Below, one piece after another: positions 8,979 to 50,274 of a stretch of 64,000 nucleotides of DNA. The notes beneath the pieces were generated by a model. The model worked only from the letters and a program-made list of their open reading frames with translations. It was not told the DNA's origin and ran no database searches. The translations under genes were made by a program, and so were the position numbers. The DNA is taken from NCBI RefSeq assembly GCF_964355755.1, contig NC_092672.1:31192437-31256436 (forward strand), read 5' to 3'. The stretch comes from Antedon mediterranea. Lineage: Eukaryota > Animalia > Echinodermata. Every line of letters begins with the position of its first letter. Position 1 is the stretch's first letter.

Positions 8979-18217
<9,239 letters not shown>

Positions 18218-22200: not shown

Positions 22201-25200
22201 CAAGAACGTAAACGTGCTTGTAAGGAGCATCGTGCATGGTCTAAACATAATAGGGCAGATCTTGATAAGGGGGATGCTTTATGGAAGGATTATAAAATGA
22301 AAAAAACTCAAGCGAAAAATGTAATAAAAAATAAAATGATGCAATTGAAAGTTGACAAAAGTGTTGCCATAGCGAAAGCAGGTGGTCAGAGTTCTAAAGA
22401 CTTTTGGAACGAATTAAGGGGGCCTAAGAAGGTAATTGTTCCTTCTAACCTAAAAATTCCCGACTCTACACAAGTTACCTCAGACAAACAGGTTATGGCT
22501 AACTTGATTAAAATTTATTGGAGTAACTTGGGTAATCAAACTGGTGTCAATACTTATAATGATATAGTTATCAATAGTCATGTTTCTGATATTAGGGAAA
22601 ATTATATAAATTATGTTAATGATGATCCACAAAAAGTACTGGATGATATAAGAATTTCATTTGAAGATGTTAAAAGTTCAATACTTCGTTCTAAAAACAA
22701 TAAAGCACCTGGTGTTGATGGCATCACTAACGAATTGTTAAAGAACGGAGGTGACTGCCTTATTAGGGCACTTACATATCTTTTTAACTATTTTGTTAAA
22801 TCAGAGAAAATTCCCACCGAGTGGAATAAAGGGATCATTATACCTATCCATAAAAAAGGTAGCAAGAACGATTTAAATAACTATAGAGGTATCACATTAT
22901 CATCATGTGTTGCTAAAATTTTCAATCGTATTATTTGTGATCGTATCTCAGAATTTCTTGAGAGTAATAGTATTCTTACGGAAATCCAGGGAGGCTTTAG
23001 GAAAAATCATAGATGTGAGGACCACATATTTACACTTAAAAGCATATTGGCTACGCGAAATGCGGAAAATAAGTTAACATACTTAGCCTTCCTGGATTTC
23101 CGTAAGGCTTTTGACACGGTTTGGCGTAATGGCCTTTTGTCAATAGCATGGAATACTGGTATCCGTGGTAAAGTCTGGAAAATTATTGATAAACTTTATA
23201 CAAACGTCAAATGTAATGTTAAGTTTGGTGATATTGTAACTGATTATTTTGATGTCGATGAAGGGGTTAAGCAAGGCTGCGTATTATCACCGACCTTATT
23301 CTGTATTTTTATAAATGAACTCTCCAAAATGTTATATAATGAAAATGTCGGATGTCATACTTTAGGCACAAAAATTAGCTGTCTTTTTTGGGCTGACGAC
23401 GTTGTCTTGATTGCTAAAGATGAAAATGATCTGGAGAAAATGTTATCTATCGCTGGAATTTTCTCCAAAAAATGGAAACTTAACTTTAATTATGACAAAT
23501 CAAATGTTGTGGTTGTTGGTAAACGTACTAATAAAACTAAACAATGGCCTCTTGTAAACCACTTCATCAAAGAAGTAGATTGTTACAAATACTTGGGAGT
23601 GAATATTTCAAGAAACTTCTCCGAAAGTATACATGTTAATGATGTAGTTAGAAAAGGAAATAGATTAATTGGATATATCAAGTCCATTTTTAATGAGCAA
23701 GAAGATTTTAATAGGATTTATTTTGGTAATATCTTGTGGAAAACTATAGCACTACCTTCAATTAACTATGCATGTGCAATATCAGCTTATAGTGCCAGTG
23801 ATTACAAAAAAATCGAAAACATTCAGCTACAAATGGCTAAAACACTACTAAAAGCACCGAGGAACACGCCATCATTGGCTCTGTTGGGTGACTTAGGATG
23901 GGATAGCATTGAAAATACCCATAATGAAATAAAAATTAAATATTTTGACAGGCTTATCAACTACTTAGAAGCCCATCGTTGGCCAAAGCTGCTGTTGCAT
24001 GCATTATTTACCTTGCATGACAATAATGTTAATATAAAATGGCGATGGTTAAACTCAATTAAAAGTATTCTGAATAATACTGGATTTAATCATGTATTTT
24101 CAAATAACATACCTATAGATTCAGCATGGTTTAAATCTTTTAAGTGTGTTAATCGTCAAATGTATGAATTGGATTGGTTTAATAAAAGCTGTACCAAACC
24201 ATCATTATCACTTTATGTTAAATTTAAAAAAATGCCTGAGTTAGAAAATTATCTTACTGTTAAAACTGATTTTCATGGTGCTCAATTGAAATTTAAGGCA
24301 AGGTCAAATACTCTTCAACTTGAAAGTAGATTAAGTAAATGGGATATGAATAATACTGGTAATTGTATGTTATGTAAGGATGAACCTGAAGATTTATATC
24401 ATTTTATGTTAAATTGTAAAGTACTACAAGAAGTGCGAATTTCAGAATTTGAATGCTTGGAACAAAACCTTAATGATTCTGGTCTTTCAGATCTATGGAA
24501 TTCACTCCAGTTAAATAATTCAGAGGTTATCTTAATGATTATACTTGGTGGTGATTGTTCTGTTCTCATTCCAACAATGTCGATTAATATGGTAAACAAA
24601 GCCCATGACATTCTTGATAAATTCTGCAAATCATATCTTAAGAAAGCATGGGCCTTTAGACAACGTATAAAGTCTAACATTATCGAATGATTTTTTTTAA
24701 TTTTTTTATTGTATGTAAGTTGGTTTAGTTATCTTAATTCTGTTTACAGTCATCAAATAATTCACCACAGCTGAAATAATTTAATCTATGCTTTCCTGTT
24801 TATTGATGTCCCTAATTTGGGTTCCTATTGTTCCTTATTATTTTTGCTGGTAGACACTGTGTATCAAGAATGTGTATATCTTAACATAGATTCTAAGTAC
24901 TGTATATTCCTTTGTTCATATACTAATTGATATGCTAATTTAGTGTCCAAGCTTATGTATGTGGGTTGCATTTAATTGGTTTTAGTATTACAGTTTATTT
25001 TTAATTTGGTTTTATCGAACTTCCGTTTTATCTGAGTATTATCTGTTTTAATCTAGTTTATCTTTATTTTTATACTCATATTTTTTATATTGTATGTTTA
25101 ATTGTTTTAAGGATGCACCATTATTATGTGTGCCGCTGTTCAAAAAGCGTTTTCCAAATAAATTATTATTATTATTATTATTATTACTGGTGGCCGACCC

Positions 25201-28200
25201 CTGGCTGTGTCCGTCCTACGCTATATTGCTCCCAATTCCTTCCCATCGTGCATCGCTCACGCTATTTGCGATTTTTTTTTAAAATACTGAAAAGTTTGTT
25301 CTTTTTTATTCAGAGTTTATCCACGAATATGTTTTTAAAACAAACATTGTTGGGATATCTTCAAGAAGCAATACGGCATTCACCTACAAGAACAATCACT
25401 ATCTGGTGATCGCCGGATTGTAAGTATTTTTGGGCGAAACGAGAAAAAATGACGATGTAAACTATGATATAACGACGGAAACACGATGATGACGAAACAA
25501 AGCATAGTGGGAAGGATTTGGGAGCAAACGTCACGACGCGTACGTGATGTGTTGTTTATACGTTCGCGTCGTGACGTTTGCTCCCAAACCCTTCCGATCA
25601 TGCATTGTGCAATGACGTTCCTCGCGAAATCAAGCTATAATTTGCGATAAACCTTATCGACGAAGATGAAATTTACAATGACGATCCGACACAATACGTA
25701 ATCGACGACAAAATAGACGTCATCGACGACACATCCGGGTAGTGACAATAATGACGGCAAACGAAGATGATTACGACGAAAGTGAATCATCTTCAGCGAA
25801 TAAAACGACATTGATGCCAATAGTAAATCAAAGCCTGTTTTCCACTAGGCGGCGAAATTATTCGACCGAATCCAATGTTTCGCAGACAAAAAATAGCGCT
25901 ACTGCAAGAGCAATAGCTGCATTGTTTGCGAAACTTTTCGCTTCGCAAAAGTTAAGTAGAAATAATTCTACAAACGATGGAAAAATGAATGCGCATTCGT
26001 ATAAACTGACGCTTTCGATTCGCACGAACAAATTCGCCTAGCTGAAACAAAGTTTTAAAAATGCGTTGTCATACAAAATCCAAGGAACTGGAATCAACAA
26101 AATTGGGTCAGACAACTTGATAAAAATTGCCAAACCATGACGTCATAGGTCCTATAGGTTGTCGGAAATCAAAAGGTCCCTAAAGCTTGGTTCCCACTAG
26201 AACGTAACGCAAGGACGTAAACGCAACGCAAGCGTTTTAACCAATGACAAGCGAAGTTATAGACAGTTAGCAATCACAAGCGAATAAGCCATCGCTTGTG
26301 ATTGGTCAATTCACTTGCGTTGCGTTACGTCCTTGTTTTGCGTCGCTAGTGGGAATCACGCTTAAAGCTTCGTTCCCACTAGCGACGCAACATAACGCAA
26401 TCTACGCAACGTAAGCAAATGCCCTTCTAATAATTGTGTTTGCCTCCGCATGCGTGAAATCAAACCTGCGATGTCTGGCAGCACTGTTGCGTCGTCGGTT
26501 CCCACTTGTGATTACGCAATACAGCACTTTGCGTCAATACGGCGTTGCGTTGCAGTAGGAACCAAGCTTAAGATTGGTTCCCACTAGCGACGCAACGCAA
26601 CGCAACCTACGCAACGTAAGAAAATACTCTTCCAATAATTGTGTTTTCCTCCGTCTGCGTGAAATCAAACCTGCGATATTTGCAGCACTGTTGCATCGTT
26701 GGTTCCCACAATCGTCAATACGTCGTTGCGTTGCGTTCTAGTAGAAACCACGCTTTAATGACTACTTTAAGTGTGGTTCCCACTAGCGACGCAACACAAG
26801 GACGTAACGCAACGCAAGTGAATTGACCAATCACAAGCGATGGCTTATTCGCTTGTGATTGCTAACTGTCTATAACTTCGCTTGTCATTGGTTAAAACGT
26901 CCTTGCGTTACGTTCTAGTGAGAATAACAACAACGTGTTTTACGTCACGTCGAGTAATTGAAATGTTGCAGTTCTTTGTCTCATTGTTCTGATCTGGTTT
27001 TCATAAATGTTCGTGTTCAGTGAAGAAATCTATACCACCGTATGGTGAAATACAATGACGACACTGACGTCATTCAGCGATGAACAACGACAACATATCG
27101 ATATCGGATGACAATGACGCTCAAGTCGAGGTGTTGATACGCAATAAATACGGTTGACCAATAGATGACGACTAAAAAGTGGGTTTATCAACGGCGACGA
27201 TGACTAGTCTAATCGACAACGTCTTGGTCCTACGGCACTTTGAAATGTTCGGTTATGAGACCGGTATAGGCCCTACGTCTTCTTCCTATTAGCCTGATCT
27301 AATTATCATCAGTATATTTTCAGCGAAGGCGTGTCCGAATCCCTAACAAAGGTTTACAAATACAGTAACACTGATGACGTTTATGAATATCACCAAGAAC
27401 TGACTGGAACAAGTGACGTAGGAAAACTTGAGAAGTTTATAATTAATGGACAACTTTACATATTTGCTGCCAACTATAAGTCATATGGACTTACAGACTA
27501 CATCAGAAATTCTTACCTTTACAAGTTCAACACGCAAACAGGTAATATAAATCGGTATCCGGATGGTAAAGCCTGGTTCCCACTAGCGACGCAACCTACG
27601 CAACGTAAGAAAATGCCCTTCCAATAATTGTGTTTTCCCCCTGCGTGAAATAAAACCTGCGATTTTGGCAGTACTGTTGCGTCGTCGGTTCCCACTTGTG
27701 ATTACACAATACATCACTTTACGTCGATACCTCGTTGCGTTCTAGTGGGAACCACCCTTTAGGGATGTTTATGGTCATTAATTCTAATTATCCAATTGAA
27801 TTTCCGATTATCCTGTACCTTATCAAAGATATATTGATACACTAATTATATTCACATTTTTGGATGATTAATGAAGCCATTTTCCCTGACTGTGTACTCT
27901 TGTTGGCATGGCATTATACTTTGTACTCGTTGTATTGAGAATATGGCATAATGTTATACTTTTATTTATTTATTTACTTTTATTAGGTCTATTTGAACAA
28001 CATCAAACATTTTCAACACAAGCTGGAAATGACGCGTCATATTTGGAATTCGATTCAAACCATTACCTACTTGTTGTTAATCACTACGGCACAGCAGTAG
28101 TATATGAGGGAAACCAGGCCAAAATATAATTTTATACCCCCAGGGCAGAAGTATTCCAGGCCCGAATGGAATGTCATATCCCCAGGGCATATTTCATATT

Positions 28201-31200
28201 TCTATTGTTTAATTTCCAGGTATTGTATTAATAATTAGTGAAAGGTCATTCTTTGTACCAGACCGGAAAGGAATGTCATATCCCCAGGGTATATATTATA
28301 TTTTCTATTGTTTAATTTCCTGTTATTGTATTATTAATTAGTGTAAGGTCATTCTTTGTTAGAGAAATGGTTTGTTATTTTGGCGGGGTTTCTGTTTTGG
28401 CCTGTGCTATATTCGTAAAGAATTTGTATTTTTAAAAATTATTGAAAGGTCATTCTTTGTTAGGGAAGGGGGTTTGTTATTTTGGCGGGCTTTTCGTTTT
28501 GGCCTGGGCTATAATTGTAGTTGGTGATGAATTTGTATTTTAAATATATTAGTGAAGGTAGTTCTTTGTTTGAGGATTGCTATTGTTATTTTTAGGCGGT
28601 TTGACCATTGCATAGGTCACTTTTGTTTAGTATATCCTAATTTCTTTTGTTCATTGTTCTTTTTGTTTGGTACAATAGTTTTGTTTTTGATATTTTAGAG
28701 CCGTTTCTTTTTAGACATTGTAAGAAAGGGGACTGCTTTTTGTGACCTTTCCAGTTGCTTTGTCTATTTTAACGTAGAGTTACAGTATTTCGCTATGTCT
28801 GGAAGTATAGATTTTTCGCAAGGTAGATGTGTAGATACAGTTATAATTATTAGCGATGATGAGGAGACTGCTGTTACAGGTAGCGATATCGGTGATCGGT
28901 ACATGCGGACCAATGAGGGTGTACCCACCGGTGTTGATGAAGGAGATGAGAGGGGTAGCCGGGCTACAAGTTGTATATTTACGTACGTAGATGAGGTAGA
29001 GAGAGAATTTTTATTGAAATTGGAATATTTAGCCAGATAAGCGTTTGTTTCTCAAGTGTTAAACAAGTGTTGGATGTTAAGTCAAGCGGCTTGTTATGGT
29101 TGCGAATTTGATAGGCCTGGTCAAAAAGATCATGACTTCTGTTTAATGAAATCTCCAGAAGAACAGATTGACTATTTTTATCGGGAGGTTCTGGATAAAG
29201 AGTATGTTACAGACGATACCGTGTACAGTGAGCTGAATAAGTACGAGGAATATTCATTACCACGGTACAGACATTTTGTTTACTTTCTCGTCAGTACCTT
29301 GACTAATTCAGAGAACCTGTATAAGTTATTGTGTGAGGATATCTAAAACGTGTTTCGCACGTGCCACGGAAAAAACGATTGACCGGAAAACAAACAATTA
29401 ACAATACTTTAATCCGCACGCGTTGTAAGGAGACAATTGACAGGTAAAACAATTAATATCACTTTAGGCTAATTACTGTAAAGAGCTACGTAAACTGTAA
29501 ATATAATATAGGACCTGATTCAAGCGAAGTTAAGACCTGTTTGTATGCAGTCGCCGAGCACAGTTATTCATTTTAGACTTACAGCGATGATTTGTATCTC
29601 GCTTTCTCTCTCTCCATTCACCGTCATTGTATTTTCTAAAGCTTAGCCAGATTAAAGCCTAAAGATCACTTTCTATATTTATGAAAAACTGTCAGCAGGA
29701 TTTTTAGAATGTACTTTAAAGATCAATACAGCGATTCCAAAAGAAAACGCACAGAATACAAGAAATCTTCAAAAAAAGTTCCACATGGAAGAATTACGTG
29801 AAAGTACAGAAACAGATTCTAAACGGAGCGTATTTAAAATCAAAACAACAGTTGCTATCCCCCGATAGGTTATTGGTGCAAAAGATATTAAGAGAAAATT
29901 TAGATTGTGATTACCTTCAACTTCTTGATAAAGGAGCAGCCGATACATTGTTTAATAAATGTGAGGAAGAGATTGACTGTTTTACCGGTGATCTTGCAAA
30001 GGTGAAAGTATACGGAAAGTGGTTTAATATTCCTAGAAGACAGGTTGGTTCCATTATATTTGTTCTTCATCGTGGTTTTGTATTATTATTAATGATGTAC
30101 TAGTATTTCACTTCCTTTTTTATTTACCGTTGAGTAGTTCGGTGCTATTTACTCGCTTACTGTAAATATTTTTTGTGCGTATTCATTTTCATCTTACCAG
30201 ATAAGTTTCATTAATTACTTTCTTTGTATGATTTCCCCTCTGCAGGTTTCTTTCGGCGATTCGGGCTTAACTTACACATTTTCAGGTAATACAGTACCAT
30301 ATTTACCGTGGCCTTCATTCCTGGAAGATCTCCGCGATCTTTTAAAATCGGTTACAGGACATTACTTCAACTTTGTTTTGGTCAACCGGTAAATATTCTT
30401 GTTTTTTTGTTTTTTTTGATTGATTAAAAAGGTCCAGCGTTTACCTCTAAAACTATACGCATGAACAATGATATCAGTGGTCAAACTGAGTAATTTTTTA
30501 CAATTTGCGGGATAAGATTGTTCTAATTGTATTATGCAAGTGTTTATTTTACTTTACACCCCCGATGGATAATAGGTTTTCTTTGGTCTCATGTTATTGT
30601 ATTTTGTCATTACTCAGATATGCTACTGGTAGTGATTACATTGGTGAACACAAAGATGATGAGAAAGACATGAATCACTTTAGTCCAATCGCCTCTGTAT
30701 CATTGAGGCAAACACGTATGTTTAGATTTCGGCATGGTGATGCACGGGGTCAGAGTCCCAAAAGAATCATTAAGCCAGTAACTGTTGATCTTAAACACGG
30801 TACATTATTAATGATGAATTATCCCACTAATGAGTACTGATACCATTCACTACCTAAACAGCAGTCCATCAAGCTACCAAGAACAAATCTCACGTTTAGA
30901 GATATTAAAATATGAGAGAAATTTCACGCAAACATTACAGTCTTTAATAGTTGTCGCAGATCTCAAGAATATTTACTGTTCATGATCTGTTTAGTATAGT
31001 AGTAAATCATTTTTGTGATGCTATTCCTACAAATAGCTGTATTTATTGAAATTCACTTAGATCTATACCTAATTCCATTGATCGCTAATATTCATGTGAT
31101 TGTTTCTCATTGTGTGCATAAAAATTAAATAATCTCTTAAAAGTAAATTGTATTGTATTTCTAATTGTTATAAATACATGTGTAACAGTTTCTTATGTTT

Positions 31201-34200
31201 TTAACAAGTGTGTAAGTTTTTCTTTAAAGCGTTTTAACCGTTTAGTTAGTAATTTCAAGAGAAACAGGTACTTGAAACGGATAAATGATGTCGTAACGTG
31301 GGAAACGGACTGGTAGATTAAAAGAAACGTTATAGGCCTAATAACACTAATAATAACAAACATATATTTCGTACATAATCGATAAGTTATCTAAATATGT
31401 GTGATTAATATTATTACAATAAAGACCATGTAGATCTACAGTAGTTTGACTGTAAGTGGTATTGTAAATAAATTTTGAATTCAACGGTGAGAAATAACAG
31501 ATGTCTGCGTATTATTTAATATTACTTTTATCATAATTGCAAACACAGGTCGATCATAATTTGAAGGCAGGAAGACGTTTTGGTTGCCAATTGTATTTTC
31601 TTTACACTTAACACATTTTAACAGAAAAACAGGAAAGCTAGACATTCAACCGGAGCCCAAAAATTGAAATTTGTTTACAAGCAGGTTATTTGCATTAGTT
31701 ATTATAAGGCCTACTTTTTTTTCTACATGTTTATCTTTCGACTATTTAAAAAAATTTTTTTTTTTATGAACCTTCCGCTGTTTCGTTAGCAATTTTACAG
31801 GCCTGTGTCTTCGCTCTGTAGGCTTAACCTTATAACGACATATATTTTAACGATTCTTTGTAAATGCTTTCTTATTGATGGTTACCTATAGCTCTCTCAC
31901 ATCCCTTAATCTAGCACCATTTTATGAAAGATTCCTCAGTAAGGGGTTTATTACTGGCGCTAGGTATCATCGACAGGGAATATTAGACAAAACATGACGT
32001 CAATATTTTTAAAAGGTTTTCTCATTCAAGAACAGCTGACGTCAATGAAGAATACGTTACAACACGATAACTACCGGACAGCAGCAAAAAAAACATCAAC
32101 CAATCACAAAGCTGAGCTACTAGTTAAATAATAAATAAATGAAACAAAGACAAAAGAAAAGGAAATACACCAAACAAATCATTTTCGTCTCGAAGTTATA
32201 TTAACGTAAATTTTTCCTTCACAAAATCACAGGAGACGCGTTTTTAACGTTTCCAATTGTAAAGCAGTTTAAAATTGCGTCGCATTTAGTACTGCTAGTA
32301 CCTTACTGTAAAATAGTATCTACCGATATATATTTTGCTGGTCACTCATCATTTTTATTACATCACATTATTCAACTCATCAGGTGTAATATCTTTACAC
32401 AAATCCTTTATATCTTTACTTTTATTTCTTACCAGCTCATAACAAACATGAATATTACTCTAAAGGATTTATACTCAATGTATGATAAACCCCCCTTTTT
32501 TAAAGTCTGCATAGCGGCACGAGAAAACAATTGATAATGGGGATAAAAAGTTTGTCTTACATTGTTATACCGTAACCTGTGTTTTTCTTTGTTTACACCA
32601 TCTCATTGTTTATAATTATGTATGTTAATGTCGATAGTGTTTTCGCTAGTACAGTTTATTACTTGTTTATACTCGTAAAGTTTGCAGGCCTCCATGTTGT
32701 TGGTATATTTTGTAAAAATTGTATTTAGGCCTATGTTTACTTTTTAAAAATCGTTTTATTTGCATTTTATCTCCTCCTGGTTAAAATGAGTGTGATGAAA
32801 AAAGTTAACAAGTATAACCACTAAAACGGTTCATTACCTGTAGGAAATCATCAATATTGTAACATGCGGTAAACAATACAAATTAGTTTCACAAATTATT
32901 TAAACAATAACACTAACAAATTATTAGAATTTAAAAAAATGTGTACAGATTTTATTTCGATAAAAAAGTGTACAAAGATAACTTTACAAAAAGTGTACAG
33001 AATAAAATAACAACAAAAAAAGTCCACACATAAGCTAATTCTTATAAATGTGTACAGTGTACATTGGCTACAGACATTCTTAAAACAGACGTGTACAGAT
33101 TGTAGTTCGAAAAAAAGTGTACAAAAATAACTTTACAAAAAAATGTACAGAATAAATTAACAACAACAAAATCACACATTAAACTAATTCTTATAAAGGT
33201 GTACAGTGTACATTGGCCACAGACATTCTTAAAACGAGGTGTACACAGCTTTTATTTAAAAAAAAAAGTATACACAAATAATTTTACAAAAAGTGTATAG
33301 AATAAATTTACAAAAAAAGATCACACATTAAACTAATGCTTATAAAAGTGTACATGTCGATGTGTACATGTAACGTGGCATTACCATTAAGAAACAAATA
33401 CAAACCAAACACTTAACAGCTAAAACAGCATAGCGATCGTTTTCGTACGAAAAACAATACCTCCAGCAGGTATATCAACTTTAGTATTTTACGTATAGGG
33501 CATACACGTGACAAATACACACACCCTCTTGAATTGTAGGTACAGGCCTTTTACCGTTCGTAATTCAAACTGTTCGGAAAATTGAAGTTAATATTCTGAG
33601 ATTAGGCCTATAGCCTATGATTGCATTCTGCCTTCCCTCTCAGGAGCTTAGACTTTGTCAACGGTCTAAAAGAGCTGTAATGCAGGATGCGAAACATAAA
33701 CGTTTATTAATAAACAGTATATTATAACGATAAAGAAACGAATGTACGATACACCAATATAACAGTACAATAACTGATTAACTGAAGACTTGAAGTCTAC
33801 TGTATTCCTACAATCATTCAAGTAGACATTGTTTGCTGAGTGTATGATACTTTCTCCAAAGAGAATTCGAACGATGTGTTTCTACGGTTATCAGAACGGG
33901 TCAATAGTAATATAAAAAAAAACAAAAAAAAACAAAAAAAAACAAAAAAAAACGAGCAGCCTACTAACTTCCAAAAAATCAATACCTAAATAAGCTGAAC
34001 CTAACCCACTAATTAATCTCTTCCATACATCAAAATCGGTCGAAAATGATCTGAACATTGAAAAGTGGACACGGTCGTCTGTTCTTCTTTTCTGTTTCCA
34101 CGGCTGGCTTGTGACATCCTCGATGGTGATAAAGCCATGCGGTCTACACACTTATGAAGACCACATCGCATAACATGTTCAGGGAACTTATTTTTCAACT

Positions 34201-37200
34201 CTCTGATACAATGTTGAAATACAAGTGGACTGGAAACCATTTAGGAATAGGGTTTTCTAATAATAAAAGTTGTGTAAAACTTTAGTTATGGTCAAGGGGA
34301 TTGGTCAAGACTTGAAGTAAATGGTCGAGACTTGGAGTAAATGGTCGAGACCGGGGGGAAAATGGTCAAGACAGGGAGAAAAATTAATGTACACCATTTT
34401 ATAAGTTTATATTCACTTATTGTGTTAAATTTCATTTATGATTAAACCTGTATACGTATTCAATAATAAAAAATTAATTTTCTTACACTTAATATCATGA
34501 ATAACATATGTTTAGTAGTTAAGGTATTATATTATTTCTCTGTATACTGACCTCACAAATATAGATAAAGAGAGACTGTAACTAAATGTTTATTGATTAT
34601 TAGGGTTACAGTGAGAGTTCTATGCAAACATTAAAAGGCCAATTAACGAGCCACCCAACTTAATTAAGTACCGGTACCTAGCAAATGCGCTCAAACTCAA
34701 TAAGGGTTACAACTCTACAAAAGAGGACATTTTATTTTTAAACAGGGTTAAACATAAAAAGGTCAATTACTTAAAAAGGGTTGTGTCAATTGACACTTGA
34801 ACTTTACCTCTATACAAGGACGAATGGACAGTGACAATTAACCATTAAACTCTGGTCACAAAAGCATGGGAGTTTCAATTTTCGACTTCGTCGAAATTTG
34901 AGAGCCCCCCAATAAAACGGTTGACCAGAGTTTAATGGTAAATTGTCACTGTCCATTCGTCCTTGTATAGAGGTAAAGTTCAAGTGTCAATTGACACAAC
35001 CCTTTTTAAGTAATTGACCTTTTTATGTTTAACCCTGTTTAAAAATAAAATGTCCTCTTTTGTAGAGTTGTAACCCTTATTGAGTTTGAGCGCATTTGCT
35101 AGGTACCGGTACTTAATTAAGTTGGGTGGCTCGTTAATTGGCCTTTTAATGTTTGCATAGAACTCTCACTGTAACCCTAATAATCAATAAACATTTAGTT
35201 ACAGTCTCTCTTTATCTATATTTGTGAGGTCAGTATACAGAGAAATAATATAATACCTTAACTACTAAACATATGTTATTCATGATATTAAGTGTAAGAA
35301 AATTAATTTTTTATTATTGAATACGTATACAGGTTTAATCATAAATGAAATTTAACACAATAAGTGAATATAAACTTATAAAATGGTGTACATTAATTTT
35401 TCTCCCTGTCTTGACCATTTTCCCCCCGGTCTCGACCATTTACTCCAAGTCTCGACCATTTACTTCAAGTCTTGACCAATCCCCTTGACCATAACTAAAA
35501 TTTTACCCAACTTTTATTAATGGCCAGTCTCTCTTTATCTATATGTGTGACGTCAGTATACAGAGAAATAATATATTACCTTAACCACTAAAGATATGCT
35601 ATTCATGATATTAAGCGTAAGAAAGTTATTTTTTTTTTTTTATTATTATTGAATACGTATACAGGTTTATTCATAAATGAATATTAACACAATAATTGAC
35701 TATAAACTTATAAAATGGTGTACAATGATTTTTCTCTCGGTTTTGACCATTTCCCCCCCCCCCCCCCCCCCGGTTTTTTTACCATTTACTCCAAGTCTTG
35801 ACCAATTCCTCTTGACCATAACTAAAGTTTTACACAACTTTTATTATTAGAAAACCCTATTCCTAAATGGTTTCCAGTCCACTTGTATTTCAACATTGTA
35901 TCAGAGAGTTGAAAAATAAGTTCCCTGAACATGTTATGCGATGTGGTCTTCATAAGTGTGTAGACCGCATGGCTTTATCACCATCGAGGATGTCACAAGC
36001 CGGCCGTGGAAACAGAAAAGAAGAACAGACGACCGTGTCCACTTTTCAATGTTCAGATCATTTTCGACCGATTTTGATGTATGGAAGAGATTAATTAGTG
36101 GGTTAGGTTCAGCTTATTTAGGTATTGATTTTTTGGAAGTTAGTAGGCTGCTCGTTTTTTTTTGTTTTTTTTTTGTTTTTTTTGGTTTTTTTTTATATTA
36201 CTATTGACCCGTTCTGATAACCGTAGAAACACATCGTTCGAATTCTCTTTGGAGAAAGTATCATACACTCAGCAAACAATGTCTACTTGAATGATTGTAG
36301 GAATACAGTAGACTTCAAGTCTTCAGTTAATCAGTTATTGTACTGTTATATTGGTGTATCGTACATTCGTTTCTTTATCGTTATAATATACTGTTTATTA
36401 ATAAACGTTTATGTTTCGCATCCTGCATTACAGCTCTTTTAGACCGTTGACAAAGTCTAAGCTCCTGAGAGGGAAGGCAGAATGCAATCATAGGCTATAG
36501 GCCTAATCTCAGAATATTAACTTCAATTTTCCGAACAGTTTGAATTACGAACGGTAAAAGGCCTGTACCTACAATTCAAGAGGGTGTGTGTATTTGTCAC
36601 GTGTATGCCCTATACGTAAAATACTAAAGTTGATATACCTGCTGGAGGTATTGTTTTTCGTACGAAAACGATCGCTATGCTGTTTTAGCTGTTAAGTGTT
36701 TGGTTTGTATTTGTTTCTTAATGGTAATGCCACGTTACATGTACACATCGACATGTACACTTTTATAAGCATTAGTTTAATGTGTGATCTTTTTTTGTAA
36801 ATTTATTCTATACACTTTTTGTAAAATTATTTGTGTATACTTTTTTTTTAAATAAAAGCTGTGTACACCTCGTTTTAAGAATGTCTGTGGCCAATGTACA
36901 CTGTACACCTTTATAAGAATTAGTTTAATGTGTGATTTTGTTGTTGTTAATTTATTCTGTACATTTTTTTGTAAAGTTATTTTTGTACACTTTTTTTCGA
37001 ACTACAATCTGTACACGTCTGTTTTAAGAATGTCTGTAGCCAATGTACACTGTACACATTTATAAGAATTAGCTTATGTGTGGACTTTTTTTGTTGTTAT
37101 TTTATTCTGTACACTTTTTGTAAAGTTATCTTTGTACACTTTTTTATCGAAATAAAATCTGTACACATTTTTTTAAATTCTAATAATTTGTTAGTGTTAT

Positions 37201-40200
37201 TGTTTAAATAATTTGTGAAACTAATTTGTATTGTTTACCGCATGTTACAATATTGATGATTTCCTACAGGTAATGAACCGTTTTAGTGGTTATACTTGTT
37301 AACTTTTTTCATCACACTCATTTTAACCAGGAGGAGATAAAATGCAAATAAAACGATTTTTAAAAAGTAAACATAGGCCTAAATACAATTTTTACAAAAT
37401 ATACCAACAACATGGAGGCCTGCAAACTTTACGAGTATAAACAAGTAATAAACTGTACTAGCGAAAACACTATCGACATTAACATACATAATTATAAACA
37501 ATGAGATGGTGTAAACAAAGAAAAACACAGGTTACGGTATAACAATGTAAGACAAACTTTTTATCCCCATTATCAATTGTTTTCTCGTGCCGCTATGCAG
37601 ACTTTAAAAAAGGGGGGTTTATCATACATTGAGTATAAATCCTTTAGAGTAATATTCATGTTTGTTATGAGCTGGTAAGAAATAAAAGTAAAGATATAAA
37701 GGATTTGTGTAAAGATATTACACCTGATGAGTTGAATAATGTGATGTAATAAAAATGATGAGTGACCAGCAAAATATATATCGGTAGATACTATTTTACA
37801 GTAAGGTACTAGCAGTACTAAATGCGACGCAATTTTAAACTGCTTTACAATTGGAAACGTTAAAAACGCGTCTCCTGTGATTTTGTGAAGGAAAAATTTA
37901 CGTTAATATAACTTCGAGACGAAAATGATTTGTTTGGTGTATTTCCTTTTCTTTTGTCTTTGTTTCATTTATTTATTATTTAACTAGTAGCTCAGCTTTG
38001 TGATTGGTTGATGTTTTTTTTGCTGCTGTCCGGTAGTTATCGTGTTGTAACGTATTCTTCATTGACGTCAGCTGTTCTTGAATGAGAAAACCTTTTAAAA
38101 ATATTGACGTCATGTTTTGTCTAATATTCCCTGTCGATGATACCTAGCGCCAGTAATAAACCCCTTACTGAGGAATCTTTCATAAAATGGTGCTAGATTA
38201 AGGGATGTGAGAGAGCTATAGGTAACCATCAATAAGAAAGCATTTACAAAGAATCGTTAAAATATATGTCGTTATAAGGTTAAGCCTACAGAGCGAAGAC
38301 ACAGGCCTGTAAAATTGCTAACGAAACAGCGGAAGGTTCATAAAAAAAAAATTTTTTTTAAATAGTCGAAAGATAAACATGTAGAAAAAAAAGTAGGCCT
38401 TATAATAACTAATGCAAATAACCTGCTTGTAAACAAATTTCAATTTTTGGGCTCCGGTTGAATGTCTAGCTTTCCTGTTTTTCTGTTAAAATGTGTTAAG
38501 TGTAAAGAAAATACAATTGGCAACCAAAACGTCTTCCTGCCTTCAAATTATGATCGACCTGTGTTTGCAATTATGATAAAAGTAATATTAAATAATACGC
38601 AGACATCTGTTATTTCTCACCGTTGAATTCAAAATTTATTTACAATACCACTTACAGTCAAACTACTGTAGATCTACATGGTCTTTATTGTAATAATATT
38701 AATCACACATATTTAGATAACTTATCGATTATGTACGAAATATATGTTTGTTATTATTAGTGTTATTAGGCCTATAACGTTTCTTTTAATCTACCAGTCC
38801 GTTTCCCACGTTACGACATCATTTATCCGTTTCAAGTACCTGTTTCTCTTGAAATTACTAACTAAACGGTTAAAACGCTTTAAAGAAAAACTTACACACT
38901 TGTTAAAAACATAAGAAACTGTTACACATGTATTTATAACAATTAGAAATACAATACAATTTACTTTTAAGAGATTATTTAATTTTTATGCACACAATGA
39001 GAAACAATCACATGAATATTAGCGATCAATGGAATTAGGTATAGATCTAAGTGAATTTCAATAAATACAGCTATTTGTAGGAATAGCATCACAAAAATGA
39101 TTTACTACTATACTAAACAGATCATGAACAGTAAATATTCTTGAGATCTGCGACAACTATTAAAGACTGTAATGTTTGCGTGAAATTTCTCTCATATTTT
39201 AATATCTCTAAACGTGAGATTTGTTCTTGGTAGCTTGATGGACTGCTGTTTAGGTAGTGAATGGTATCAGTACTCATTAGTGGGATAATTCATCATTAAT
39301 AATGTACCGTGTTTAAGATCAACAGTTACTGGCTTAATGATTCTTTTGGGACTCTGACCCCGTGCATCACCATGCCGAAATCTAAACATACGTGTTTGCC
39401 TCAATGATACAGAGGCGATTGGACTAAAGTGATTCATGTCTTTCTCATCATCTTTGTGTTCACCAATGTAATCACTACCAGTAGCATATCTGAGTAATGA
39501 CAAAATACAATAACATGAGACCAAAGAAAACCTATTATCCATCGGGGGTGTAAAGTAAAATAAACACTTGCATAATACAATTAGAACAATCTTATCCCGC
39601 AAATTGTAAAAAATTACTCAGTTTGACCACTGATATCATTGTTCATGCGTATAGTTTTAGAGGTAAACGCTGGACCTTTTTAATCAATCAAAAAAAACAA
39701 AAAAACAAGAATATTTACCGGTTGACCAAAACAAAGTTGAAGTAATGTCCTGTAACCGATTTTAAAAGATCGCGGAGATCTTCCAGGAATGAAGGCCACG
39801 GTAAATATGGTACTGTATTACCTGAAAATGTGTAAGTTAAGCCCGAATCGCCGAAAGAAACCTGCAGAGGGGAAATCATACAAAGAAAGTAATTAATGAA
39901 ACTTATCTGGTAAGATGAAAATGAATACGCACAAAAAATATTTACAGTAAGCGAGTAAATAGCACCGAACTACTCAACGGTAAATAAAAAAGGAAGTGAA
40001 ATACTAGTACATCATTAATAATAATACAAAACCACGATGAAGAACAAATATAATGGAACCAACCTGTCTTCTAGGAATATTAAACCACTTTCCGTATACT
40101 TTCACCTTTGCAAGATCACCGGTAAAACAGTCAATCTCTTCCTCACATTTATTAAACAATGTATCGGCTGCTCCTTTATCAAGAAGTTGAAGGTAATCAC

Positions 40201-43200
40201 AATCTAAATTTTCTCTTAATATCTTTTGCACCAATAACCTATCGGGGGATAGCAACTGTTGTTTTGATTTTAAATACGCTCCGTTTAGAATCTGTTTCTG
40301 TACTTTCACGTAATTCTTCCATGTGGAACTTTTTTTGAAGATTTCTTGTATTCTGTGCGTTTTCTTTTGGAATCGCTGTATTGATCTTTAAAGTACATTC
40401 TAAAAATCCTGCTGACAGTTTTTCATAAATATAGAAAGTGATCTTTAGGCTTTAATCTGGCTAAGCTTTAGAAAATACAATGACGGTGAATGGAGAGAGA
40501 GAAAGCGAGATACAAATCATCGCTGTAAGTCTAAAATGAATAACTGTGCTCGGCGACTGCATACAAACAGGTCTTAACTTCGCTTGAATCAGGTCCTATA
40601 TTATATTTACAGTTTACGTAGCTCTTTACAGTAATTAGCCTAAAGTGATATTAATTGTTTTACCTGTCAATTGTCTCCTTACAACGCGTGCGGATTAAAG
40701 TATTGTTAATTGTTTGTTTTCCGGTCAATCGTTTTTTCCGTGGCACGTGCGAAACACGTTTTAGATATCCTCACACAATAACTTATACAGGTTCTCTGAA
40801 TTAGTCAAGGTACTGACGAGAAAGTAAACAAAATGTCTATACCGTGGTAATGAATATTCCTCGTACTTATTCAGCTCACTGTACACGGTATCGTCTGTAA
40901 CATACTCTTTATCCAGAACCTCCCGATAAAAATAGTCAATCTGTTCTTCTGGAGATTTCATTAAACAGAAGTCATGATCTTTTTGACCAGGCCTATCAAA
41001 TTCGCAACCATAACAAGCCGCTTGACTTAACATCCAACACTTGTTTAACACTTGAGAAACAAACACTTATCTGGCTAAATATTCCAATTTCAATAAAAAT
41101 TCTCTCTCTACCTCATCTACGTACGTAAATATACAACTTGTAGCCCGGCTACCCCTCTCATCTCCTTCATCAACACCGGTGGGTACACCCTCATTGGTCC
41201 GCATGTACCGATCACCGATATCGCTACCTGTAACAGCAGTCTCCTCATCATCGCTAATGATTATAACTGTATCTACACATCTACCTTGCGAAAAATCTAT
41301 ACTTCCAGACATAGCGAAATACTGTAACTCTACGTTAAAATAGACAAAGCAACTGGAAAGGTCACAAAAAGCAGTCCCCTTTCTTACAATGTCTAAAAAG
41401 AAACGGCTCTAAAATATCAAAAACAAAACTATTGTACCAAACAAAAAGAACAATGAACAAAAGAAATTAGGATATACTAAACAAAAGTGACCTATGCAAT
41501 GGTCAAACCGCCTAAAAATAACAATAGCAATCCTCAAACAAAGAACTACCTTCACTAATATATTTAAAATACAAATTCATCACCAACTACAATTATAGCC
41601 CAGGCCAAAACGAAAAGCCCGCCAAAATAACAAACCCCCTTCCCTAACAAAGAATGACCTTTCAATAATTTTTAAAAATACAAATTCTTTACGAATATAG
41701 CACAGGCCAAAACAGAAACCCCGCCAAAATAACAAACCATTTCTCTAACAAAGAATGACCTTACACTAATTAATAATACAATAACAGGAAATTAAACAAT
41801 AGAAAACATAATATATACCCTGGGGATATGACATTCCTTTCCGGTCTGGTACAAAGAATGACCTTTCACTAATTATTAATACAATACCTGGAAATTAAAC
41901 AATAGAAATATGAAATATGCCCTGGGGATATGACATTCCATTCGGGCCTGGAATACTTCTGCCCTGGGGGTATAAAATTATATTTTGGCCTGGTTTCCCT
42001 CTACCTCTACTCACAGCTTACGGAGTTTACTCAGAGGTGTATAAATGGGATTTCGCCAGTAATCAATTCCTAGCAGACTATTCCCAGATACAAAGTCACG
42101 GCGCTTTCTCTGGAAAATTATTCGCAGTGGATGGTACGCTGTACGCGGTAATAGTAAACTACTACGACGACGCAGCAGGTTACCACGCGGTTAAATCTCA
42201 AGTTTGGAGAATAAAAGAAAAAAGTAAGTAAATTTAAAAAATGATAATCAATTCAGTGTATAATTGAAGTACGAAAATGTTTAGGTAATGTTACCAGACA
42301 ATGAGTGTGTATGCGTACGTATGCATATTTTAAGCGTGGTTCCCACTAGCGACGCAACGCAAGGACGTAACGCAACGCAAGTGAATTGACCAATCACAAG
42401 CGATGGCTTATTCGCCTGTGATTGCTAACTGTCTATAACTTCGCTTGTCATTGGTTAAAACGCTTGCGTTGCGTTTACGTCCTTGCGTTACGTTCCAGTG
42501 GGAACCAAGCTTAAGAGTTCAACTTATCTTCAGTGAGTGAGTCTGTGCCATCAACGATTAGGCCGAATGTTTACCGGAGCGCGATGTTTAAATAACACAT
42601 TTGAGGCGCATTTGATAATGTGATTGTAGGTAGGTCTACTTATTTTCCGCTTAAAACTCTTTGTGTCAAAGTTTGATGTGCCCAAATATGGTAGTGCTAT
42701 GTTTAAATATGGTACGGTGGTGATATGAATGACATCATCATGTCCATTATGGTCACATCACATTTAGACAGACAATGTAAACCGGGTTCAACACACGATT
42801 GTGACACAACACAAGGCGTCCTTCATAATCTATAATAGATATATTGCAATGTGCCGCTTACAAATAATTCGTAGCTGTTTTAAAGCTCTGTCTACACTAT
42901 CAAACTAGTTTAACCAAAAAAAGTGATTTACCTAAATATAGTAGTGATGTGCCCAAATATGGTAGTGATATGAGGTATGTGCACATCACATATTTTGTCA
43001 CATAATGTTTAAGAAGATTCAAACACTGAATGTGCTCATATGTCATCCAATTTTTAAAAACTTCTGGACTAAGTTCTGCAGCAAATATTTACTCTAAATT
43101 AACTTTCTGTCAATCAATTGAATTATAATGTGAAAGAAATAAAACTAAATAACTACGACAAATGATGTTGACATATTTTGCTTGATTCAGGGCGTTATAT

Positions 43201-45178
43201 AGGCTGTTTTAGAGACCAACAAACCAGAGCAATGACAGGGGCTACAGTCCAGAGTGGAAGCATGACAATAGATTACTGTTTAGACTATTGTTCGGGCCAA
43301 GGCAGTCCATATTCTGGTGTGCAGCTTTCAAGCCACTGTTTTTGCGGAACAGCATACTCAACATACGGCGAGAGTGCTGATAGTGAATGTAATGTTGTGT
43401 GTGCAGGAAACCCGCACGAAAAATGTGGTGCAGGCTGGAGGAATTCAGTATACCATACAGCAGGTAAAAAAAAACACACTTATACTTTTGTTATGCTGTT
43501 CAAGTAATCTCAAATAGTGTAATGAAGCTGTAGCTTGGTGTGGTTAACGTGCTTGCCAATCCCAAGGTCCAGAGTTCAATCCTGACCTAGTGCCAGGGTT
43601 GTAATTCACGACTCTTTACTTTCAACTTCACTCCCTAAGCCTCAAATGAGACTATAGCTTATAAGCACGATACATTATTAAATAGTTTATCAATCCTGTA
43701 ATTGGGGAGCTTTACTCGCTTTTGAGTGCGTATGAAATACAAAAATAATACACTGAGTAGGCATACTATGATGCCAATCAATAATCTTCTAAGTACAAAA
43801 CAACGGTAATCATCTAAATTCATTTAAACTTTATTCACAATCTCGTTTGTACACATACTGGACTCTGACAATGAAATACGTCATTCATTAGTTAATCACG
43901 CATAACGGATTGTAACTAGAACCATCTCTTCAGGTAGCAAAGGATTGATACAGTCACTCGACGAATCAAATGCTGGCTCAACTGGAATCGACATTTTCAC
44001 AAATGACGGAGATACTTACTTTGTTGTTGTCAATCATTTAAGTTGTGTACAAAATACAATAGTGTACATATGGGACGAATCGACTGATGAATTCAAAATT
44101 CATCAACGTATTCCTTTAGAACATTGCCCTGTCAGCACTACAGTTTTCAAAGTAAGTACAATTGTAAGTAAGTACCATTGTCAGCAGTGAGTAGGCCTAT
44201 ACCATTGTAAATAAAGTACTGTAAGACCATTGGAATTATGTGCCATTATAAGTACCATTACCATGTGTAAGTAAGTACCATTGTAAGTACAATTGTAAGT
44301 AAGTACAATTGTAAGTAAGTCCTTTATAAATAAGTACCATTGTAAGTACATTTTAATTCTTTTCGTCTTGGGGCCCCAATTGTAATATCCCCATATCAAT
44401 ACCAAACGCATAATCAGGGGCGGTCGCAGGACGATTTTAAGGGGGTTACCCAAGATTCCTCAGAGAGCCGTAGCTACTGAGTATTTGCGCCACAGGACGT
44501 CCGTAATTATTACAGAAATTCGCCCAAATATTACGGACGTAGGGAAATGAAGATAAATATAGTCGTCTTTTCCAACCCTGGACTTCTATAACGTTAACAG
44601 TTAATATATAATATGATGAAATGGGATCTAAATTTTAATTTAGTGGCAGAAAAAAACATTTAGTATGAAATTAAGGGTGTTGCCCGGGCAACTGGGGAAA
44701 CACCCCTGCGTCCGCCCCTGATAATCCTTCTGTAAGTGTATAGAGGGAGGCGCTATCCTCACAGCGCAAAATAATATGGACCTCTTTCTTATACATTATT
44801 ATAAGGTTGGTTTAGAAATCTCCCGCGTTCTCTGCAGAACATGCCATGGAAAGTACGTCTAGATTTAATTTAATCCACCTTCACGCATTGAATGTTATTT
44901 ATTTACAGGTTGGTGGAGAAGTATTTATGATAGTACCCACACTCAGAAAATTATGGAGTTACACTAATGTTGACGCCGACCTCTTTACTACGACATCGCC
45001 AATATTTAAACTGGAGGGATCAATGTTCGTAAAGTACGGAGACATGACGTCGCACTCGTGTTATGGTATAACGTTTTTTGAGCGAGATGGGGAGTACTTT
45101 TTAGGTCAGTCAAATCAACGAAATGGTATTGATGGTACCAAAACTGATCCAAGTTTTAACATTTACCAATGGGTGTAG
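19284..45178 (+). CDS. Secreted PAN/apple - EGF - EPTP(EAR) repeats - WSC - EPTP repeats protein, interrupted in exon 5 by the palindromic element; exons 19284-19637, 20891-21017, 25314-25419, 27324-27541, 27987-28095 + 42018-42223, 43191-43463, 43934-44150, 44909-45178
   Basis: Signal peptide; PAN cysteines (ECMQLCRKDARCLAFTY); EGF (CRNGGSCINDC...YSCAC...YGRFCE); EPTP-like repeats (SYLYKFN...FEQHQTFST, VYKWD...F, IVYIWDESTDEFKIHQRIP); WSC (YIGCFRD...MTIDYCLDYC...HCFCG...CGAGWRNSVY). All junctions are GT-AG and in phase. Confidence 0.82.
21127..25187 (+). mobile_element. LINE with an uninterrupted ORF2 (APE endonuclease + reverse transcriptase + C-terminal CCHC finger), possibly RTE-X-like, in intron 2
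   Basis: The frame is open from 21100 to the stop at 24690. Motifs: GIAETFL, VGDFNGR, IDYVL, SDHN, APGVDGI, NYRGITL, QGGFR, FLDFRKAFD, GVKQGCVLSPTLF, FWADD, YKYLG, CMLC...EDLYHFMLNC. AATAAA + (TTA)n tail at 25157-25187. The 5' boundary is approximate. Confidence 0.93.
26182..26925. mobile_element. Cluster of four adjacent MITEs of the AAGC(G/T)TGGTTCCCACTAG family; other copies at about 8409-8631, 19697-20031, 27569-27760, 42331-42513, 45925-46125
   Basis: Repeated inverted termini GGTTCCCACTAG...CTAGTGGGAACC, ACGCA repeats, and two alternative internal sequences. Confidence 0.85.
28168..28630 (+). repeat. Subterminal ~100-bp repeat ladder of the element (mirrored at about 41477-41939)
   Basis: AAGGTCATTCTTTGT near 28242, 28345 and 28446, with a variant near 28555; GGAATGTCATATCCCCAGGG twice; TTTTGGCGGG twice. 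Confidence 0.85.
28795..29346 (+). pseudogene. ~183-codon ORF with acidic N-terminus and a CxxC...H..C motif, broken by one in-frame TAA (29038-29040); left arm
   Basis: ORFs 28795-29040 and 29056-29346 are in the same frame. Motif CYGCEFDRPGQKDHDFC. Confidence 0.68.
29722..30915 (+). pseudogene. ALKBH2: ALKBH2-like Fe(II)/2OG dioxygenase with introns; exons ~29722-30043, 30246-30388, 30618-30915; premature TGA at 30838-30840; left arm
   Basis: Spliced: ...ENLDCDY...KVKVYGKWFNIPRRQ|VSFGDSGLTYTFSG...PWP...VTGHYFNFVLVNR|YATGSDYIGEHKDDE...SPIASVS...LKHGTLLMMNYPTNEY*YHSLP...PRTNLTFR. HxD, distal His and RxxxxxR are present, and TGA replaces the conserved Trp. The start codon was not located. Confidence 0.9.
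32941..33370 (+). repeat. ~150-bp unit repeated about 2.8 times, rich in the palindrome TGTACA (mirrored at about 36737-37166)
   Basis: Units begin GTGTACAGATT at 32941 and 33091 and GTGTACACAGC at about 33239. Confidence 0.85.
34859..34921. other. 63-bp central spacer of the palindrome, itself an imperfect hairpin
   Basis: CAATTTTCGAC-TTC-GTCGAAATTTG at 34876-34900, with loop TTC at 34887-34889, 2 nt from the arm symmetry axis (34890). Confidence 0.88.
39192..40385 (-). pseudogene. ALKBH2: ALKBH2-like gene, mirror copy in the right arm, with the same premature TGA
   Basis: ORFs 40004-40309 and 39267-39602 translate identically to 29798-30103 and 30505-30840. Confidence 0.9.
40761..41312 (-). 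pseudogene. Mirror copy of the CxxC...H..C ORF, with the same in-frame TAA
   Basis: ORFs 41067-41312 and 40761-41066 are contiguous and in frame. Confidence 0.68.
43529..43745 (+). mobile_element. Possible tRNA-derived SINE
   Basis: tRNA-like head GTAGCTTGGTGTGGTTAACGTGCTTG...GAGTTCAATCC (A/B-box-like) without a complete cloverleaf. Boundaries are uncertain. Confidence 0.4.
44151..44350 (+). repeat. Degenerate GTAAGTA(CAATT/CCATT) repeats starting at the exon 7 donor
   Basis: GTAAGTACAATTGTAAGTAAGTACCATTGT recurs through about 200 bp. Confidence 0.75.
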
Positions 45179-46642
45179 TTTGTCGAAGATCTTGCGTAGT
45201 ATCCACGATGGTTGTGACGTCATAGCTTTTAGAGAAAATGGTCAACAACATTATTGCTTACAATGAAAGAATAATGCAATCATTGTTATCTCATTTGTCT
45301 GTTTTATTGTAAATTTTAAAGATGTATTGTCCCCCAAAAACATGAAAAATGAAGATTAATTAAATCAGACTTTGAAGTGTTATTTTGTAGTTTTAATAAA
45401 GTTATTCACATCCATAGAAAAAAAAACAAACAAAAAATAATGTTTTCACTTATAAAATGACAAAAAATGGTTAAATTCAAACAAAAATCCATTGGCTGGC
45501 AGCCAATTTGACAATTTTTGGCTTTAAATTACATTTTTTTCAGGTAAATACATTTTTTTTCTCGATCCAATTTTTTATCAAAGTGGATAACAATGGAATA
45601 TTCAACAACAATTTGTTTAAGAATTATTTTTTCAGGGGGACAATACATCAATATATTTCAGCGTGTTTGACCTTTGATGATTCTCACATTTTATAAAAAA
45701 TATGAAATGCATTCAAGAGGTGTGTGGCGCAGTGAGTTCGAATCCAACGCCTTGTCGCATTATCCAGACACTTTACTTACGTTTGCCTCTCTTCACCTAT
45801 GCGTAAAAATGGGTACCCAGTATTAAAGGTCAAACATACAATGTGGTGATTACTAGCTGGAGCATATATTAATATGGGAGTATGTTTCCATACGTTGATG
45901 ATCGAAGTAATAATGTGAAGCGTTTAAGCGTGGTTCCCACTAGGACGCAACGCAGCGACGTATTGACGCAAAGTGCTGTATTGCGTAATCACAAGTGGGA
46001 ACCGACGACGCAATAGTGCTGCAAACATCTCAGGTTTGATTTCACGCAGGCGGGGGCAAATACAATTATTAGAAGGGCATTTTCTTACGTTGCGTAGATT
46101 GCGTCGCTAGTGGGAACCAGGCTTTAGACTAGACTCGGATGCTTTGTGCATTAAGCACTATATAATATCCATGTATTATTATGATGTATTGTTGGTATAA
46201 TAAAAAAATTAAAACATTTTTATTAAACATAATCAAAATGTCCTTTAGAAGAATTTAAACACTTATAAATATGTATATTATTATTTCATAAATCTATTAT
46301 ATTTACATATTATTTTGACAACTAAAAACAGGAGTTGACTTAACCCCTGACCTCACTCAAGTTTGTGTGTTTTTAAAATTTATTCTATCATTTGATAAGA
46401 ACAACTTTCTCTTTGTGCATAGTCCATGTTGCTTAAATATTTTGAAATTATAGATTCTGTAAAAATGTTTTATTGCACTAATAAATAGTAAATGTTTTCT
46501 CGTTATTTATGAATTATTATGTTAAGTACAAATTAAACGGATTTTTAAAATTATAAGTGTTATAGATTGGTCATCAATTAAATATTTACATACTTACAAT
46601 CAAAATATTCTGTTACAACAGCAGAACCTAAAAACCAACAAA

Positions 46643-50086: not shown

Positions 50087-50274
50087 TATTTTTTTGTTTG
50101 TGCTTACTGTATATAGAGGGCGACATCCATGTTGAAAAAAGTTAACGCAACACAATCATCAAATTTTAAAACGAAACACAGTAGGCCTAGCCTAGGCCCT
50201 AGGCCTAAATATGATGTAGAAATTGTTACAAATAAACGTTTTTTTGTAATTGTACGAATTTGTTTTTTTTTACT
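50087..50274. promoter_or_regulatory. Compact bidirectional promoter/5' UTR region between TMEM222 and PEX14
   Basis: Divergent predicted start codons are only 188 bp apart. The region contains TATAGAGGGCGACAT and TAGGCCTA repeats. Confidence 0.7.

Follow-up and report, generated by a model that had tools for sequence, protein, structure and literature searches.

A 13.9-kb palindromic element with Polinton/Maverick-type ends in a coding exon of Antedon mediterranea, probably a snap-back derivative mobilised by a helper

Intact Mavericks (Polintons) of vertebrates are 12.7-24.6 kb long and carry a 6-bp target site duplication (TSD), terminal inverted repeats (TIRs) of 46-1,447 bp and intronless core genes; their (AGT)2 or (AG)3 ends are thought to serve jumping-back initiation (PMC8097293). 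Lepidopteran (butterfly) Polintons hold genes inside TIRs of ~2 kb and their polB-less derivatives are mobile, while a large unique interior and core genes are kept (10.1101/2025.02.07.637071). Nematode Mavericks, which are complete or pseudogenised full elements, bear single-copy, intron-containing cargo of host type adjoining the left TIR, within a few kb of the end (10.1101/2022.07.12.499685). Here we analysed 64,000 nucleotides of contig NC_092672.1 of the echinoderm Antedon mediterranea (positions 31,192,437 to 31,256,436; hereafter the window, in whose own numbering coordinates are given) and identified a 13,916-bp element at 28096-42011 that is made up almost wholly of one giant inverted repeat. 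With autonomous Polintons/Mavericks it shares the 6-bp TSD, an AGT-type end and the length range, whereas those have eight intronless core genes (PMC8097293, PMC10748475) and this element has a 6.76-kb inverted repeat, no core genes that we could find and intron-containing cargo. It likewise resembles the lepidopteran and nematode elements in where it carries genes, but has an interior of just 63 bp and holds its host-type gene, ALKBH2, in two mirrored copies. We conclude that this recent insertion is probably a snap-back form of a Polinton/Maverick that is not autonomous and depends on a helper, acting in trans, for both copying and integration. Hairpin derivatives are also known from the protein-primed linear plasmids of fungi; a kalilo derivative and a yeast hairpin plasmid are said to be helper-dependent, with one end inverted and duplicated and with hairpin and duplex forms. 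Those derivatives are extrachromosomal and have no integrase step, whereas the present element sits, flanked by a TSD, inside a gene of an animal.

Self-comparison of the window recovered the inverted repeat in one copy. Its arms are reverse complements separated by a 63-bp spacer, and the repeat accounts for 97% of the element:

28096-34858, forward strand: left arm, 6,763 bp (self-comparison and arm alignment)
34922-42011, reverse strand: right arm, 7,090 bp (self-comparison and arm alignment)
28096-28105, forward strand: left terminus AGTAGTATAT, starting with (AGT)2
42002-42011, reverse strand: right terminus AGTAGAGGTA, positions 6-10 unlike the left end
28090-28095, unstranded: left TSD copy CACAGC, exact 6-bp duplication
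42012-42017, unstranded: right TSD copy CACAGC, exact 6-bp duplication

Global alignment of the two arms revealed 13 substitutions, two one-base indels in A/T runs and one extra segment of 327 bp confined to the right arm (35500-35826). Five of the substitutions are consecutive and occupy terminal positions 6-10 (AGTAGTATAT at the left end versus AGTAGAGGTA at the right end when read inwards); the eight remaining internal ones correspond to an arm divergence of 0.12% (confidence interval (CI) 0.05-0.23%) over 6,753 bp. In the flanks, CACAGC was the only match at lengths of 4-9 and offsets of -3 to +3 besides its own 4-bp subset, and the chance probability of such a duplication is ~3e-4. A first-pass annotation of this DNA had placed the arms at the same coordinates as reverse complements with few substitutions and had reported the CACAGC duplication at AGTAG...CTACT ends. 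Global alignment bore out the arms, and the duplication proved exact on both sides; the 327-bp indel and the clustered end difference were absent from that annotation.

The element interrupts an exon of an animal gene:

27987-28095, forward strand: 5' part of the interrupted host exon, EPTP/EAR repeat (Pfam PF03736, E 2.5e-5; presumed start at an AG acceptor)
42018-42223, forward strand: 3' part of the interrupted host exon (PF03736, E 0.005, below the cut-off; presumed end at a GT donor)

Deletion in silico of the element together with one TSD copy yielded an uninterrupted exon frame, ...HYLLVVNHYGTAYGVYSEVYKWD.... Given the TSD and the restored frame, the element entered this coding exon as one unit, as expected of the mobile-element insertion that had been proposed from the sequence at first pass. 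The host exon, though disrupted by this copy, is undecayed, which argues for a recent insertion. Exons encoding PAN, WSC and further EPTP domains lie nearby on the same strand (Pfam). The host gene, with its PAN/EPTP/WSC exons, extends over 19257-45178 (forward strand) and may be one gene or two tandem paralogues; besides the exon struck by the palindrome, it contains many other insertions.

The 6-bp TSD (CACAGC, with the host frame restored) is that of Polintons/Mavericks, and the element falls within the 13-25 kb of Polintons. Compared with the end motif (AGT)2//(ACT)2 or (AG)3//(CT)3, the left end is an exact (AGT)2 and the right end agrees at 5 of 6 bases (AGTAGA). Other superfamilies with 6-bp TSDs differ in their termini. 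IS3EU and GingerRoot end in TA..TA or TG..CA (PMC10045372) and are excluded by the AG..CT termini found here; Ginger1 and Ginger2, which have 4-bp TSDs and TGTNR termini (PMC2836005), are excluded by the 6-bp TSD and the AGTAG..CTACT ends. Thus, the ends point to a Polinton integrase.

In contrast to an autonomous Polinton, with its pPolB and rve integrase, its ATPase, protease and major and minor capsid genes, and its TIRs of ~0.05-1.5 kb around a unique interior, the element has 6.76-kb arms around 63 bp and none of these genes was found. When all six frames of the left arm plus the centre, stops being translated as X, were compared with Pfam, no remnant of a polymerase, integrase, ATPase or protease was detected; the sole match was the 2OG-Fe(II) oxygenase family PF13532, which doubles as a positive control. 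The longest stop-to-stop open reading frame (ORF) in the element is 127 aa. No intact ORF is long enough for a major or minor capsid gene and none was matched by Pfam, which very decayed remnants could escape. An autonomous Polinton is ruled out by these core-gene and TIR-size tests. Rfam gave no match in 26000-44000 of the window. Of what the first-pass annotation had said on this score, the lack of replication and integration genes agrees with the single PF13532 match and the ORFs of at most 127 aa, and the length near that of autonomous Polintons with the range reported for intact vertebrate elements (PMC8097293). Its Polinton/Maverick-type ends hold for the TSD and the left end, and at the right end for five of the six bases.

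Each arm carries two genes, ALKBH2 and ORF-A, the latter with a Cys/His motif and from a widespread family:

29885-30043, forward strand: ALKBH2 exon 1, domain part (3rzg_A 8-60, E 2.4e-11; GT donor 30044)
30246-30388, forward strand: ALKBH2 exon 2 (3rzg_A 62-108, E 6e-12), flanked by GT-AG introns of 202 and 229 bp
30618-30915, forward strand: ALKBH2 exon 3 (3rzg_A 109-204, E 3e-30; PF13532), premature stop 30838-30840
39192-40222, reverse strand: ALKBH2 mirror copy, identical premature stop at 39267-39269
28795-29349, forward strand: ORF-A, acidic N-terminus and CxGC-x5-[PS]xQxxHxxC domain, internal stop 29038-29040
40758-41312, reverse strand: ORF-A mirror copy, identical internal stop at 41067-41069

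The whole dioxygenase domain is best matched by ALKBH2 and has the HxD..H motif. Its three exons tile residues 8-204 of human ALKBH2 (PDB 3rzg), with HxD..H and the distal Arg aligned, and the introns are GT-AG with compatible phases; exon 1 as given covers the domain part only. Exon 3 matches ALKBH2 at E 3e-30 versus 3e-10 for ALKBH3, and exons 1 and 2 match ALKBH2 only. Unlike the human gene, this copy has a premature stop in exon 3 and is carried twice on a mobile element.

Both premature stops, in ALKBH2 and in ORF-A, are present in both arms, as are the diverged tandem repeats of 103 and 149 bp described below. From two stops in 380 sense codons, neutral substitution after the release from constraint is estimated at ~3-5% (CI 0.4-18%), versus 0.12% between the arms. 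Because the stops and the diverged repeats are mirrored and the arm divergence is far below the decay estimate, the sequence indicates that the arms were made identical after decay of the genes had begun. Such timing would be expected both if replication equalises the arms continually and if a fold-back took place recently. Since the cargo was already broken at the last equalisation, it is predicted to be dispensable for movement and not needed by the element as inserted.

The arms also contain several repeats, and the spacer between them can fold:

28156-28592, unstranded: subterminal 103-bp and 109-bp tandem repeats, with mirror copies in the right arm
32941-33354, unstranded: tandem repeat with a 149-bp unit (2.8 copies, 86% matches); mirror copy at 36754-37176
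35202-35846, unstranded: two tandem units of ~322 bp, 84% identical, in the right arm, which explain the 327-bp arm difference
34261-34578, unstranded: single 318-bp unit in the left arm, a chimera of the two diverged units of the right arm
34859-34921, unstranded: 63-bp spacer, an imperfect hairpin (folding and shuffles)

The subterminal repeats are candidate origin or protein-binding sites. In the left-arm unit, which contains 20-21-bp TGGTCRAGAC repeats, ~297 bases match the inner unit of the right arm and the last ~20 match the outer one, and such a chimera is the signature of a deletion between diverged repeats. The spacer has a perfect 7-bp stem (34880-34886/34890-34896) whose centre lies 2 nt off the palindrome axis. 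A coaxial stem of this kind arose in 122 of 20,000 dinucleotide shuffles, and such a stem anywhere in 824; the z values of the fold were -2.1 and -2.4, with equally stable shuffles in 9/200 and 5/200 cases. As this imperfect hairpin shares the axis of the palindrome, the spacer resembles an end of that larger hairpin in which base pairing is incomplete, and not the remnant of a unique interior; it may be comparable to the flip/flop hairpin ends known from poxviruses and parvoviruses. Close to the centre, within 200 bp (34658-34796 and mirror), lies a group of three perfect 10-14-bp palindromes, out of 15 in the whole arm.

ORF-A was compared with several collections. Comparison of its C-terminal half with 1.84 billion representative proteins gave 37 relatives at E<=1e-3, of which the best reached 1.5e-9 and none 1e-10, with an invariant C-x-G-C...Q-x-x-H-x-x-C motif that is likely to bind metal. 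Homology to one relative, P0020, extends across the internal stop, and ORF-A is therefore read as one broken gene. The informative named relatives among the 30 of 37 looked up are a crinoid protein with a similar acidic N-terminus (XP_033103520) and a sea cucumber protein (KAJ8041318). An N-terminal PC4 domain is present in two of four further cluster members scanned and is lacking in ORF-A itself. No meaningful Pfam family was matched by any of 38 family members, and ORF-A had no match among PHROG, NCBIfam or PDB sequences. Its domain was modelled as all-helical with a pLDDT of 86.9; a fold search with this model (VIA) gave a best Z of 4.5, none of 48,161 chains reaching Z>=5. Word-indexed protein searches returned nothing or just four proteins already known, and the ESM Atlas gave one uninformative match (0.75). 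Viral contig scans yielded no confirmed locus; one of them counted 4/11 related stretches, none returned as a locus. A metagenome scan gave four loci from 28 candidates. Two (L001, L002) are genuine relatives whose contigs are too short to reveal their gene neighbourhood; the other two were set aside as chance, L003 reading as ordinary bacterial genes and L004 matching over only 9 residues.

Of two genome scans, one gave none from three candidates and the other a single locus (L005) from 18, a 10.9-kb contig filed in a bacterial metagenome-assembled genome (MAG) and carrying one ORF-A relative. Positions 3900-10887 of L005 contain compact intronless ORFs, among them C2H2 fingers, the ORF-A relative and a YqaJ exonuclease, several of them preceded by a repeated promoter-like motif. 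The content appears animal- or virus-like, and the contig is likely to be host-derived contamination of the bacterial MAG. The contig breaks off inside the last ORF, which we tentatively liken to the N-terminus of animal Polinton polymerases. No test confirmed the likeness: the ORF had no PDB, phage, NCBIfam or PHROG match, PF03175 was not matched in a search whose controls were equally silent, and the single-sequence model of the ORF had a pLDDT of 38.5. In adintoviruses, small 'Oncoid' genes with Cys motifs lie upstream of PolB (PMC8502044).

Most likely, the palindrome works like a defective, helper-dependent Polinton, and we infer every step of the mechanism that follows. The end region of an ancestral Polinton, with accessory or captured genes, would have folded back during protein-primed strand-displacement synthesis, and the interior would have been replaced by an inverted copy of that one end. 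A helper pPolB could then prime at either end and displace one strand, which would self-anneal into a ~7-kb hairpin whose open end forms a complete double-stranded origin. This hairpin would be copied efficiently by the helper pPolB, regenerating the 14-kb duplex. The arms would be equalised, and old mutations mirrored, as synthesis proceeds around the hairpin or as the hairpin is repaired; the outermost ~10 bases, which are prone to slippage, and one of the tandem units may have escaped this. Finally, the 14-kb duplex, both of whose ends are correct, would be a substrate for the retroviral-like integrase of the helper, and its insertion would produce the 6-bp duplication.

It is tempting, if rather speculative, to extend this to an undescribed class of Polinton satellites. 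When free, they might be ~7-kb hairpins, capped by protein at one end and, at the other, covalently closed with incomplete pairing, where the 63-bp centre would be similar to a hairpin telomere; the integrated 14-kb palindrome might be the opened dimer. Spliced host genes might be captured and duplicated by such satellites, which would thereby serve as vectors; the gene taken up here would encode a DNA-repair dioxygenase that could once have protected the single-stranded or hairpin DNA of the element from alkylation.

Several observations weigh against a snap-back Polinton derivative. The element is known from one copy, with no second copy of its ends or centre in the window, and its right end departs from (AGT)2 at one base in six. 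The 5-base mismatch at the ends stands uncorrected, which efficient panhandle repair might be expected to fix. The folding energy of the spacer is just modestly above chance and the decay estimate is based on just two events. The association of ORF-A with Polintons is a lead only, and no test confirmed the polymerase reading of the last L005 ORF. An unlikely alternative is a one-off rearrangement in place, in which an ordinary short-TIR, non-autonomous Polinton had half of its length replaced with an inverted copy by later fold-back or template-switch repair, or by arm-to-arm conversion. It would also account for a TSD that is intact, for lesions that are mirrored and for outermost bases (positions 6-10) that differ because they escaped conversion, and the lack of a second copy in the window is as expected. 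Against it, three events would have to fit into the time represented by 0.12% arm divergence and an undecayed host exon: the insertion, an inverted duplication of 7 kb and, separately, the loss of 327 bp between units of 84% identity.

TIRs are known to expand in foldback elements such as Galileo, and we give a small chance to a foldback-type cut-and-paste transposon of another superfamily, with expanded TIRs and host DNA captured as in Pack-MULEs. The intron-containing ALKBH2 shows that genomic DNA was captured, but AGTAG..CTACT ends are unlike those of IS3EU and GingerRoot (TA..TA, TG..CA) or Ginger1/2 (4-bp TSD, TGT start), and the ORF-A relative in L005 stands in a virus-like context. The very high identity of the arms might also raise the suspicion of an assembly or read fold-back artefact. 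A fold-back would mirror the flank too, whereas unique, collinear halves of the host exon and a TSD lie on either side, and the two arms are told apart by their termini, by eight scattered substitutions and by a 327-bp indel whose junction is of the recombination type. From the unique collinear flanks and the deletion signature between diverged repeats, a matter of sequence logic, an artefact is very improbable and the palindrome is real as assembled.

Other features of the window were also noted. A LINE at 21100-25190 has an uninterrupted 1,196-aa frame (endonuclease, RT and zf-RVT; Pfam) and an (ATT)8 tail, and is flanked by 40-bp inverted repeats (21082-21121 and 25224-25263); apparently its target was a small palindromic element within the host gene described above. 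Members of a family of small, MITE-like inverted-repeat elements with GGTTCCCACTAG ends, some of them nested, lie at 19697-20034, 26176-26924, 27570-27760, 42332-42514 and 45924-46124. A direct tandem duplication of ~1.25 kb with 98.8% identity (10464-12961) is either recent or an assembly effect. A 20-bp minisatellite of ~80 copies (1857-3580) adjoins a 227-aa frame (4084-4767, reverse strand) that had no Pfam match and is presumably the C-terminus of a LINE. The frame near 14400-15323 we take to be cytidine-deaminase-like. Exons of ordinary host genes (RTE1/TMEM222-like, PEX14 and a leucine-rich repeat protein; Pfam) occupy 48164-59352.

Non-autonomous Polintons are named in Repbase, and an earlier description is possible. 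No account of a fully palindromic Polinton-ended element or of AlkB cargo was found in excerpts of the literature (including PMC10748475, PMC6431247, PMC11071308, PMC4443254, PMC11131425, 10.64898/2026.10.13.758929 and 10.1101/145037), Repbase and bioRxiv supplements being outside the coverage. Surveys start from core-gene matches and limit TIR length, for example to 2.5 kb with a long minimum loop in a coral survey (PMC11131425), so that palindromes of this kind are invisible to them by design.

The element indicates that spliced genes of host type, here ALKBH2, can ride on such elements and be duplicated by them. Replication of Polintons, by protein-primed strand displacement via a panhandle, has so far been deduced from gene content and end motifs rather than seen directly. 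Under that replication model a defective parasite should consist of panhandle alone, as this element does, and the tangible object to look for would be a snap-back DNA of 7 kb whose tip is defined.

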